This document shows positions 43,395 to 45,879 of a DNA stretch of 64,000 nucleotides, one piece after another. Each line of letters begins with the position of its first letter. Position 1 is the first letter of the stretch. A program made the translations under genes and the position numbers. Under the pieces are notes generated by a model that searched no databases, was not told the origin of the DNA, and saw only the letters and a list, made by a program, of their open reading frames with translations. The DNA is taken from positions 8,176 through 72,175 of the forward strand of contig JAUXXF010000033.1 in NCBI GenBank assembly GCA_030681135.1, in the 5' to 3' direction. This DNA comes from Chlamydiales bacterium (lineage in GTDB: Bacteria > Chlamydiota > Chlamydiia > Chlamydiales > SM23-39).

Positions 43395-44063
43395 CTAAGG
43401 AACGAGCAACCCCATATCTTCATATCTCACATAGACCGATCTTTCAGATTTTGAGAAAATTCTTTGAGGAAAATCAACTCGCTCAATAAAAGTGCGTACT
43501 AAAAAATCAGGAAAAGAACGATTACCACCTCGCGCAGCAAGGGTGGCAAGATGATGCTCTTGCTCAGAAATTGGTCCATCATAGAAAAAATAAAGATCGA
43601 TCACTTTTTCCTCGGCATTTATAGTCATTGAAACCTCTCTCAAAGCAGGGGTTACTTTAGCAAGCAATGCATGTTGCATATCTAGAAAAAGAGATGGGTA
43701 AAGATAATCTGTTTTCTTATGGAATTGAGAATACTCTACGCTAGGATACTGACCTTCAAGATCCGGTTCATATCTTAAATAGACAAGATGACCTTTAAAA
43801 GGGATTTTTTCAGGATAACTTAAATGAATAATGGTTTCATTATAACGGTAAGTCTCGCTATACTCTGCACCTAAATCAATTTCCGCTGCTGTGCAAGTAC
43901 ACAAATCAAACAAGAAATCATTAATTTCTTGATCATATACAAAATAAGTATAAATCATTCCTGTTTCATCAAAATCTATCATGAATGCACGCAAAGAAGG
44001 AGCAACATGACCTAACAATGCCCTGCCAGCAGATAACATTAAATACAATAAAGTAGAAGACAT
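43395..44063 (-). CDS. Putative immunity protein with two tandem homologous domains
   Basis: ATG at 44063 lies 1 nt after the toxin stop (44065-44067). The two ~100-aa halves align (ALLGHVAPSLRAF...YTYFVYDQEI...VYLRYE versus ALLAKVTPALREV...LYFFYDGPIS...VYVRYE). Confidence 0.6.
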   Translation of the reverse strand: MSSTLLYLMLSAGRALLGHVAPSLRAFMIDFDETGMIYTYFVYDQEINDFLFDLCTCTAAEIDLGAEYSETYRYNETIIHLSYPEKIPFKGHLVYLRYEPDLEGQYPSVEYSQFHKKTDYLYPSLFLDMQHALLAKVTPALREVSMTINAEEKVIDLYFFYDGPISEQEHHLATLAARGGNRSFPDFLVRTFIERVDFPQRIFSKSERSVYVRYEDMGLLVP

Positions 44064-44064
44064 T

Positions 44065-45879
44065 CTATCCTTCCGGTCTAGCTGGAACAACATGAACGCC
44101 ATCTTGAGCGTAATGAATCGTTCCTCTTGTAGTAGGCAGCTTAACTTTTGTAGTCTCATCTACATGATATCCAATAAATTCCTCAAAATCGACAACTTCT
44201 TTATAGCCGGATTGGCCAGGTAATTTCGAATCTGGAGAAACTTTTCTTCCTTTGCCTGCACACTCCTTCACCAATCTTTGTGGATCGGGATGCTCTAGAA
44301 TACTTTTTGCGTCCTTCGGTTTATAATTCCTATGACCTTCTAGATGCTTGCCTTGTTTATCCCACTGAATTTTTAAGTTTGCGCTTTTTAAAACCTGTTC
44401 TCGACGAGCCAAATATTCGGAGGCTTCTTTGACAATCGTTTGTTTTCCAGAGGGTGACGCTAAAGCTTCAAGCGTCATATACTGATTAGCTCGTTTTAAG
44501 CTGCTATAGGCTTTTCCGGTGCCTTTTGTCAGAAGAATATCGATCCCAAATTTGCCAATAACTTCTCCGATTGACTCCCCTTTTTCAAAAGCTTCTAATC
44601 GATCAAACCGGTTAAGCAATGCCTTTAATTCAGGCGCCATTTGATCGATCATCTCCTGGGTCGAATGCTCTCTTAAATAATCGATACAATCCAAAGAAGC
44701 TCTGACAAATGCTGTGGAGGCTCCTACAGGATGAGCACAAAAAGCCCATAGACCACGACTAAGACCGTGCAATGAATTGAGTATCTGAGGGATATATTCA
44801 ATACATCCATTTCCGACTCCTTTAACAAGGCCTAATGCAATTCCAAGACCTATATCGGTAATTTGCTCCCACTCTACGCCACCCTGTTCGGTTTCAATCG
44901 AAGAGAAATCTGACTGCAGATAATCTTCGATAGCTTGTTCAAAATCTCCTAATTCAAAATAAGCAGCAGCCCGCTCAAGATAAGCCTCTTGCCCGCTAGG
45001 ATTCTTCGCAATCGCAGCAGTCAACGACTCAATGGCCTGTGCATATTGACCATATTCTGATTCCACTTGACCTCGGAGCAAATGTATTTTCCCAAGTTCA
45101 TTCGCAGAAAAAGATTTGTTTTCTAAGATATTTAATAAATGACGAAGCAACTGCATAGCTTCAAGATAGTCCTTTTGCAAAAGGGATTCGATCGTTGCTC
45201 GAAAAGAAATCCCCTCTGTCTGATGATGTTGCAAACACCAAAAAAAGATTTCCTGCAATAAAGCATCCATCTTATTATAAGTTTTATCAAGCTTGGCACG
45301 CCATAGAGCAAATTCATTTTCCTCTCCAAGCTCTTTTAAACTGAATGTTAATTGTTCCCGTTCATGTTGAAGCCAGCTCTCAGCATTATATGCTTCGCCT
45401 ATAGAATAAGCAGGACCTATCACGCGGCCATTTCGATAGGTTACATCACGTCCTGTTTCAGAAATCCTCTGGATAGCCTCAATATTTTCTCGATGAAGCT
45501 CTACTTCTTTGCGTAACCGTTCATTATATTCACTTTCGTTCTGAGAAAATCCCTTTTCAACTGTTTGAAAAGCTTCAATCAATGCTTTTTGCCGACAACA
45601 AATAAGAGAATCATCTTCCGAAAGACGTCTAATTTTATGCTTCTCATACCAAGCATCGGTTTTAAGACCATGAGCGTAAAAATCTTCTAGATGATATTTA
45701 GTCGTTTCAAATAAATATAAAATATCATAGGCAGCTCCATCATACCGAGGAACCCCACATCCACTACGACATGTAAACGACACACCTTCATACTCTAACT
45801 TGGCGCGCAAAGAATAGACATCTAGAGGAAACAAAAAATAGAGACATAGAAAAAAAATTCGCCAATACATCGACAACAT
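44065..45879 (-). CDS. Secreted TPR-containing polymorphic toxin with C-terminal nuclease-like toxin module
   Basis: 604 aa with the signal-like N-terminus MLSMYWRIFFLCLYFLFPLDVYS and TPR-like repeats (QAIESLTAAIAKNPSGQEAYLERAAAYFELGDFEQAIEDY). The C-terminal ~100 aa read WDKQGKHLEGHRNYKP...GYKEVVDFEEFIGYHVD...TTRGTIHYAQDGVHVVPARP, as in Ntox50-type toxin tips. Confidence 0.65.
   Translation of the reverse strand: MLSMYWRIFFLCLYFLFPLDVYSLRAKLEYEGVSFTCRSGCGVPRYDGAAYDILYLFETTKYHLEDFYAHGLKTDAWYEKHKIRRLSEDDSLICCRQKALIEAFQTVEKGFSQNESEYNERLRKEVELHRENIEAIQRISETGRDVTYRNGRVIGPAYSIGEAYNAESWLQHEREQLTFSLKELGEENEFALWRAKLDKTYNKMDALLQEIFFWCLQHHQTEGISFRATIESLLQKDYLEAMQLLRHLLNILENKSFSANELGKIHLLRGQVESEYGQYAQAIESLTAAIAKNPSGQEAYLERAAAYFELGDFEQAIEDYLQSDFSSIETEQGGVEWEQITDIGLGIALGLVKGVGNGCIEYIPQILNSLHGLSRGLWAFCAHPVGASTAFVRASLDCIDYLREHSTQEMIDQMAPELKALLNRFDRLEAFEKGESIGEVIGKFGIDILLTKGTGKAYSSLKRANQYMTLEALASPSGKQTIVKEASEYLARREQVLKSANLKIQWDKQGKHLEGHRNYKPKDAKSILEHPDPQRLVKECAGKGRKVSPDSKLPGQSGYKEVVDFEEFIGYHVDETTKVKLPTTRGTIHYAQDGVHVVPARPEG

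Follow-up and report, generated by a model that had tools for sequence, protein, structure and literature searches.

A Probable Polymorphic Toxin-Immunity Pair with an Ntox50 Tip and a Doubled MafI2-Fold Immunity Gene in an Uncultured Environmental Chlamydia

The window analyzed here is a stretch of 64,000 nucleotides from an uncultured member of the Chlamydiales (assembly GCA_030681135.1, contig JAUXXF010000033.1, positions 8,176 to 72,175 of the forward strand), and all coordinates below refer to it. On its minus strand two co-directional genes follow each other, a toxin gene of 604 amino acids plus stop codon (44065-45879) with the ribosome-binding site AAGGAGA before its ATG, and an immunity gene of 222 amino acids plus stop codon (43395-44063). 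The stop codon of the toxin gene, TAG, occupies positions 44065-44067 and the ATG of the immunity gene lies at 44063, so the second gene begins 1 nt beyond the stop, as the original prediction, made from the DNA letters alone, had claimed; all the elements described there were found in place. The list of open reading frames (ORFs) of the window gives the immunity gene a 254-aa frame that starts at an upstream ATG. We place the start at ATG 44063 because the homologues of the protein all begin within a few residues of MSSTLLY and a Shine-Dalgarno sequence, GGAAGGA, precedes this codon; the gene as called in the public record likewise encodes 222 aa.

The toxin opens with a predicted Sec signal peptide (residues 1-23; 45811..45879, minus strand as for all toxin and immunity features that follow), with cleavage inferred after VYS. 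No other 19-mer of the protein is as hydrophobic as its N-terminus, MLSMYWRIFFLCLYFLFPLDVYS followed by LR, and a hydrophobic signal-like N-terminus is present in nearly all full-length family members. The N-domain (residues 24-214; 45238..45810), delimited by alignment conservation and the secondary structure of the AlphaFold model, consists of a beta-hairpin with the near-invariant cysteines C37 and C41 and then long helices. It matched no Pfam family and, in a fold search with the model of the full toxin (predicted local distance difference test, pLDDT, 78.9), no PDB fold. Next come helical repeats including about three tetratricopeptide repeats (TPRs; residues 215-329; 44893..45237). The Pfam models TPR_1, TPR_2, and TPR_16 match residues ~265-322 (TPR_1 with an E-value of 2.8e-10), and consensus-TPR structures match the repeats of the model with a target template modeling (TM) score of 0.85. 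A 604-aa ORF with a signal peptide and TPR-like repeats had been read from the letters, and both parts of that description held. The repeats are followed by a conserved Gly-rich post-TPR domain (residues 330-475; 44455..44892), recognized by our own profile and serving as the family signature; no Pfam model matches it and the same fold search returned no PDB structure for it. The family alignment places the boundary between trunk and tip at the motif LKRANQYMTLE (residues 461-471; 44467..44499).

The tip itself (residues 501-604; 44068..44379) is, by profile match and predicted structure, an Ntox50 (BECR-fold) RNase-type domain of about 100 aa that belongs to the same family as MafB2-CT and YxiD-CT. 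Pfam Ntox50 (PF15542) matches residues 505-599 with an E-value of 8.5e-24 and 84.6 bits against a cut-off of 22.2, the match spans profile positions 2-92 of 92, and a whole-genome scan recovers the same match. The Ntox50 identity that had been proposed was thus recovered by the Pfam search, and the wording "nuclease-like" was correct since the tip is an RNase-type BECR-fold domain. When the last 108 residues were compared with the PDB sequences by phmmer, only 8hhj_B (MafB2, E 3.6e-9) and 9v8i_B (YxiD-CTD, E 4.9e-7) were found. In this alignment QGKHLEGHRNY of the tip pairs with QGKHISGHRNY of MafB2, and GTIHYAQDGVHVVPARP pairs with GTIHSGKNGVHIVPANP. The best PDB match of the full toxin model is 9v8i_B (YxiD-CT; target TM 0.75, root-mean-square deviation (rmsd) 2.5, 35% identity, 106 columns), and on the predicted model the tip has the BECR/RNase A-like fold.

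The residues known to matter in the characterized relatives are retained. Park et al. (PMC9970974) described MafB2-CT as an RNase with an RNase A-like/BECR fold, the toxicity of which is abolished by H335A, H402A, and H409A, and Rohilla et al. (PMC12700104) described YxiD-CT as a metal-dependent tRNase with H447, H521, and H528 and an HxVP motif. The counterparts of these two histidine triads in the chlamydial tip are H512, H589, and H596, the last of which opens the motif H596-V-V-P599, while K511-H512 aligns with K334-H335 of MafB2. In 40 out of 40 chlamydial Ntox50 tips K511, H512, and H596 are invariant. The tip is basic, with an isoelectric point (pI) of 9.2, and is predicted to be a ribonuclease and toxic.

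The immunity gene is, as judged from the predicted structure, a tandem pair of MafI2-fold domains. AlphaFold topology and half-domain profiles delimit the first domain (residues 1-112; 43728..44063; pI 4.35), and topology and homology to the first half delimit the second (residues 113-222; 43398..43727; pI 6.07). The two halves are 31% identical to each other (BLASTP E 6e-7), the half-domain profiles each match the opposite half (1.5e-12 and 1.8e-10), and at the DNA level repeats 348-354 nt apart are still visible; this internal repeat is well beyond chance. The AlphaFold model of the protein, built with 16 homologues (pLDDT 85.7, predicted TM score 0.86), shows a helix-strand-strand-helix-strand-strand unit twice. 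Foldseek superimposed one such unit on all 99 residues of MafI2 (8hhj_A) with a probability of 1.00, a target TM of 0.73, and an rmsd of 3.0. The MafI2 fold is a four-stranded sheet that helices flank, and the Ntox50 toxin MafB2 has MafI2 as its cognate immunity protein (PMC9970974). In the protein database a precomputed PF26541 (MafI2) label is attached to the immunity protein (P0001) and to 15 out of 15 of its homologues, as well as to the gene 3' of the toxin in relatives. The protein matched nothing in our copy of Pfam, which does not contain PF26541, in NCBIfam, or in the PADLOC libraries. With 222 aa and two domains it departs from the single-domain MafI2 of ~100 aa.

The N-terminus of the immunity protein is the first helix of the fold and there is no signal peptide, so the protein should be cytoplasmic. 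Its overall pI is 4.9, and binding and neutralization of the tip (pI 9.2) are putative activities to which the order of the genes and their complementary charges point. MafI2 uses an acidic helix to bind MafB2 (PMC9970974); since the N half is the more acidic of the two, we infer by analogy that it is the likelier binder of the tip.

Both genes are under selection. In comparison with the syntenic relative L084, in which the toxin is 89% identical, purifying selection acts on every segment of the toxin (omega 0.08-0.50), with 0.08 for the Ntox50 tip. The values for the immunity gene are 0.34 for the first half and 0.19 for the second, which argues that both halves are maintained.

The trunk occurs well beyond this genome. 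A database search yielded ~40 proteins of 550-720 aa with the TPR plus Ntox50 layout, and these came only from Chlamydiia, "Verrucomicrobia", or unnamed metagenome-assembled genomes (MAGs); some of the "Verrucomicrobia"-labelled sequences adjoin Rhabdochlamydiaceae in the tree. Other members share the first ~500 residues without carrying Ntox50. For example, our toxin and the protein P0010 are 43% identical over residues 8-498 and unrelated beyond. In most members, regardless of the tip, the motif LKRANxxxTLE is separated from the C-terminus by 140-150 residues, and the tips include LHH/colicin-type HNH domains, DUF6883 domains with a DUF4926 gene next to them, and several unannotated ones. 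GTDB species representatives, almost all of them with a Chlamydiota label, supplied 80 loci, among which six tip clusters were found; two Dehalococcoidia matches in the locus search concern the TPR part only. A wider view was obtained with the profile of the post-TPR domain, which matches 711 representative proteins. Of 401 Chlamydiota genomes sampled, 167 encode the domain, at a maximum of seven copies each, and it was found in 104 of 212 genera.

For a census of the tails, the best 150 of the 711 profile matches and the proteins found earlier were combined, giving 187 with a complete domain end. Beyond the post-TPR domain the tails measure 130 aa at the median (interquartile range 127-133), and those of at least 95 aa, 166 in number, were grouped by all-against-all BLAST into 10 clusters: Ntox50 with 104 members, a second class with 42, a third with 11, and seven clusters of one or two. 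At least 10 tip classes that are unrelated by this comparison are thus carried on the same trunk. Judged by this conserved trunk with unrelated, interchangeable tips, it is a real polymorphic-toxin trunk, and this N-terminal region of ~500 aa was found only in Chlamydiota in the searches made.

NCBIfam held no name for any of the tip classes, and Pfam gave no credible family for the second and third classes or their immunity genes, the only hit being a sub-threshold Ntox35 match (E 0.0027). The second class (L054, L058, L059, L063, L066-L068, L072-L074, L076, and P0044-P0052 among its members) has a conserved H-x-M-Q-x-K-H-x-W and the C-terminal end ...FLKDAWV(V/I)TK, and the next gene, an unannotated one of ~190 aa that some loci carry as a tandem pair, is a putative immunity gene. 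The unannotated third class (L052, L053, L061, L062, L064, L065, L069, L070, L081, and P0010) is marked by the motif VRVMPGNPxSPNPxQQxPYV...EAHIP, and the next gene is an unannotated ORF of ~115 aa. A multi-toxin island with three trunk genes in a row was seen in one MAG (L002/L005; contig CAZVXF010000005.1, locus 635-8423), where two DUF6883 tips are each accompanied by a DUF4926 gene and the third gene has an Ntox50 tip and a doubled MafI2 gene.

The immunity gene follows the tip. A MafI2-like gene lies directly downstream in 39 of 43 Ntox50-tipped trunk loci, the window included, while no MafI2-like gene occurs in loci with other tips, which carry other small ORFs downstream instead, and the downstream gene differs from one tip class to the next. 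The gene is single-domain in 21 of the 39 loci and doubled in 18. The doubled immunity architecture had been called unusual: two homologous halves, both with the MafI2 fold, are indeed there, but doubling is not rare in this family. Some Ntox50 loci have arrays of 2-4 immunity genes (L011, L015, L035, L036) or two doubled genes, and in L061, a locus with a tip of the third class, a shortened orphan copy of that tip (7634-7948) stands after the immunity gene, which is a classical orphan cassette. The genome of the window contains a single trunk gene and a single immunity gene; orphan cassettes and immunity arrays are absent from the window and from this genome.

In a tree of 83 half-domains, the N half of the window protein belongs to a clade of N halves that is well supported and has nine members, and the C half belongs to a clade that comprises eight C halves. 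The fusion in this lineage is thus older than at least eight species-level genomes. In other lineages, N and C halves form pairs of their own, so several separate doublings took place. In L025, each half of the gene has as its sister a different single-domain gene in the four-gene array of L015, pointing to fusion of neighboring tandem paralogs as the mechanism. The tree therefore indicates that fusion of adjacent tandem paralogs gave rise to the doubled immunity genes. At another locus (L071, 6432-7589) an Ntox50 tip and MafI2-like domains share a single frame of 386 aa; a lost stop codon, an error of assembly, or a genuine fusion of toxin and immunity could each explain it.

The immunity gene is immediately followed by the gene of an AAA_14/DUF4143 ATPase (42070-43293, minus strand) that matches PDC-S01, a candidate defence family of PADLOC (E 3.6e-23). 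The ATPase is 98% identical in L084, and a homologous ATPase adjoins the toxin gene in the contig of P0004 in the other orientation. Immediately upstream of the toxin gene is a gene for a CoiA-like nuclease-domain protein (45948-46787, minus strand; CoiA_nuc E 2.5e-13), and this synteny is kept in L084. Between the CoiA-like gene and a branched-chain amino-acid transporter gene there is an 81-nt inverted repeat (46786-46961; arms 46786-46866 and 46881-46961, 89% complementary, with a 14-nt spacer), unusually long for a terminator. A consensus scan gave a weak promoter-like site, TTTGCA-17-TAGAAT, 5' of the toxin gene (45974..46002, minus strand); shuffled sequences would be expected to yield 6.5 such sites and the region has 3, and the scan for promoters and terminators gave no useful information. 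Further downstream, two tandem paralogs (38358-40142 and 40236-41981, minus strand) encode proteins of 594 and 581 aa that lack a signal peptide and matched neither Pfam nor NCBIfam. As L084, the closest syntenic relative, has a single copy (577 aa), the pair is a recent duplication of an unannotated chlamydial protein, which is a possible effector. At 7-14 kb from the locus are an inverse-autotransporter-like protein with a beta-helix domain (52569-55061, plus strand) and a classical autotransporter with a PATR repeat (55641-59534, minus strand). Together with an RHS toxin (12035-17443) these two make the window rich in surface and secreted proteins.

Among known systems, MafB2-CT/MafI2 of Neisseria meningitidis B16B6 (8HHJ; PMC9970974) shares with the chlamydial pair the Ntox50 tip, the three catalytic histidines, the HxVP motif, the immunity fold and, by the precomputed label, the family PF26541, Sec dependence of the toxin (predicted for the chlamydial one), and an immunity gene directly downstream. 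It differs in the trunk, which is MafB-N (DUF1020) there and a Chlamydiota-only trunk here, and in its immunity protein, since MafI2 has one domain of 99 aa, whereas the 222-aa protein has two fused domains and an identity below phmmer detection. YxiD-CT/YxxD of Bacillus subtilis 6633 (9V8I; PMC12700104) is alike in the Ntox50/BECR tip and histidine triad and provides the best structural match. YxiD is an LXG toxin of the type VII secretion system (T7SS) of a Gram-positive bacterium, whereas the chlamydial toxin has a hydrophobic signal peptide and no LXG match, and the YxiD immunity protein YxxD is structurally unlike MafI2 (PMC12700104). Because YxiD-CT is a demonstrated tRNase, tRNA is a candidate substrate of the chlamydial tip. 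YxiD-CT is reported to be metal-ion dependent, while MafB2-CT is described as RNase A-like.

As for the trunk, the Pfam scan of the toxin found none of the LXG, RHS, CdiA, or MafB-N domains (MafB-N/DUF1020 none at E ≤ 1), and a trunk of any of these types was rejected. The survey of Zhang et al. 2012 (PMC3482391), as far as its searchable text goes, describes toxins exported by Sec and the type II secretion system (T2SS) that contain TPR or Sel1 repeats and are like ours in having a signal peptide, a repeat trunk, a variable tip, and an immunity gene. Thus, the claim that the delivery module is not a standard one stands as regards the absence of the four trunk types, but not as regards the signal peptide plus TPR layout, which is already listed there among the Sec/T2SS-type architectures. 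According to the same text, Ntox50 occurs in chlamydiae and is predicted to be a BECR RNase, and fused multi-domain immunity proteins are known in general. It names no immunity family for Ntox50, MafI2 and YxxD having been defined later, and this trunk, the LKRANxxxTLE boundary, and the post-TPR domain are not described in its searchable part. In CdiA, Rhs, and MafB toxins, demarcation motifs such as VENN and PxxxxDPxGL resemble the present one in that a short conserved motif stands at a fixed distance from the C-terminus and divergence follows, and orphan tip/immunity cassettes lie downstream at some loci, as in L061. These toxins differ in that the motif here is LKRANxxxTLE, the trunk is far smaller (~500 aa), and no two-partner, type VI secretion system, or Rhs-shell machinery is present. 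The literature on chlamydial polymorphic toxins that we found contains general remarks (e.g., PMC6520448), and in it neither the trunk nor the boundary motif nor a doubled MafI2 was described. The tip and the immunity fold are new members of known families, and the trunk is, as far as found, an undescribed, widespread chlamydial variant. We regard the finding as solid and useful, though not conceptually new.

Taken together, the locus is best read as an intact polymorphic-toxin-type toxin-immunity pair of an uncultured environmental chlamydia, to which we assign a probability of about 0.78. The signal peptide would route the toxin via Sec into the periplasm, and the T2SS of the genome, or release from the cell, would bring it outside; the genome has a GspE above its curated cut-off that adjoins a GspD-like secretin, so a Sec-then-T2SS route is available. 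The trunk, with its TPRs and Gly-rich post-TPR domain, would bind and enter a neighboring bacterium, where the tip would cut tRNA or other RNA by histidine-catalyzed transphosphorylation. In the producer, the cytoplasmic immunity protein would block the basic RNA-binding face of the tip, and its doubling may extend protection to a second, non-self toxin variant. The role would likely be competition among chlamydiae or with other bacteria in the same host cell.

Several points weigh against this reading. The RNase activity, neutralization, secretion, and target organism are all predictions from sequence, as is the cleavage of the signal peptide, and the crossing of the target-cell envelope by a Sec-exported protein is a putative step. 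The PF26541 label of the immunity protein is a precomputed entry, and phmmer with the immunity protein found no match among the PDB sequences, so MafI2 was recovered only by fold. With a single trunk gene, a single immunity gene, and no arrays in this genome, the evidence for an arms race comes only from relatives. Finally, the organism is almost certainly obligately intracellular, which makes a role directed at the host plausible.

The latter explanation is the strongest competitor, albeit an improbable one. It holds that the toxin is an effector, an RNase exported to the inclusion or host cytosol to cut the RNA of an amoeba or other eukaryote, while the downstream protein shields the producer before export. 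An environmental chlamydia with a single locus and no orphan cassettes would suit such a role, TPR repeats often mediate contacts with eukaryotic proteins, and the searchable text of PMC3482391 notes host-aimed TPR- and Sel1-containing toxins in endosymbionts. The mark of those host-directed toxins in that text is the absence of an immunity gene, whereas here 39 of 43 loci have one, and the N-terminus of the toxin is a Sec-type hydrophobic signal and not a type III secretion signal. The arrays of up to four immunity genes, the extra copies, and the orphan tip in relatives fit a conflict of strain against strain. Near-universal immunity genes, arrays, and orphan tips thus favor a conflict between bacteria.

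An intracellular toxin-antitoxin module acting in addiction or abortive infection, with the long N-terminal part as a regulatory region, is very improbable. The tight coupling of the genes across a 1-nt gap and the neighboring defence-candidate AAA_14/PDC-S01 ATPase, present here and in one relative, would agree with it, but a signal-bearing trunk of ~500 aa with interchangeable tips in at least 570 representative proteins is the architecture of an exported polymorphic toxin, and on this architecture the module was rejected. The order of the genes, toxin first and immunity second, also speaks against it, as do MafB2 and YxiD, the nearest characterized relatives of the tip, both of which are secreted toxins (PMC9970974, PMC12700104). 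Least probable of all is a decaying, non-functional remnant of a polymorphic toxin, for although trunk ORFs are split in the relatives L007, L023, L041, L050, and L051, both ORFs of the window are intact with ribosome-binding sites, the catalytic residues are kept, and the comparison with the syntenic L084 gives an omega of 0.08 in the tip and of 0.19-0.34 in the two halves of the immunity gene.

Beyond the toxin-immunity pair itself, a broader and more speculative idea, which we consider possible and rather doubtful, is that the trunk may suffice for delivery by itself and form a platform specific to Chlamydiota, which would make it a kind of chlamydial bacteriocin. After export by Sec and the T2SS, the TPR part would bind a surface receptor and the Gly-rich post-TPR domain would carry the interchangeable tips across the envelopes of rival chlamydiae or of other bacteria in the same host cell, while the double MafI2 would act as a bivalent antidote against the own and a foreign toxin.

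Polymorphic toxins have mostly been studied in free-living or mucosal bacteria that use type V, VI, or VII secretion. The small Sec-type trunk described here is found in ~40% of the sampled Chlamydiota genomes, and most of its tip classes are unannotated, so that the family supplies new candidate toxin and immunity families. The recurrent fusion of adjacent MafI2 genes offers a clear natural example of how a multi-domain immunity protein originates. The trunk family is also an entry point to the question of whether, and by what means, obligate intracellular bacteria fight each other, or further symbionts and pathogens such as Legionella, in a shared host cell. If the trunk were indeed a bacteriocin-like platform, obligate intracellular bacteria would be engaged in contact-independent toxin warfare inside eukaryotic cells.

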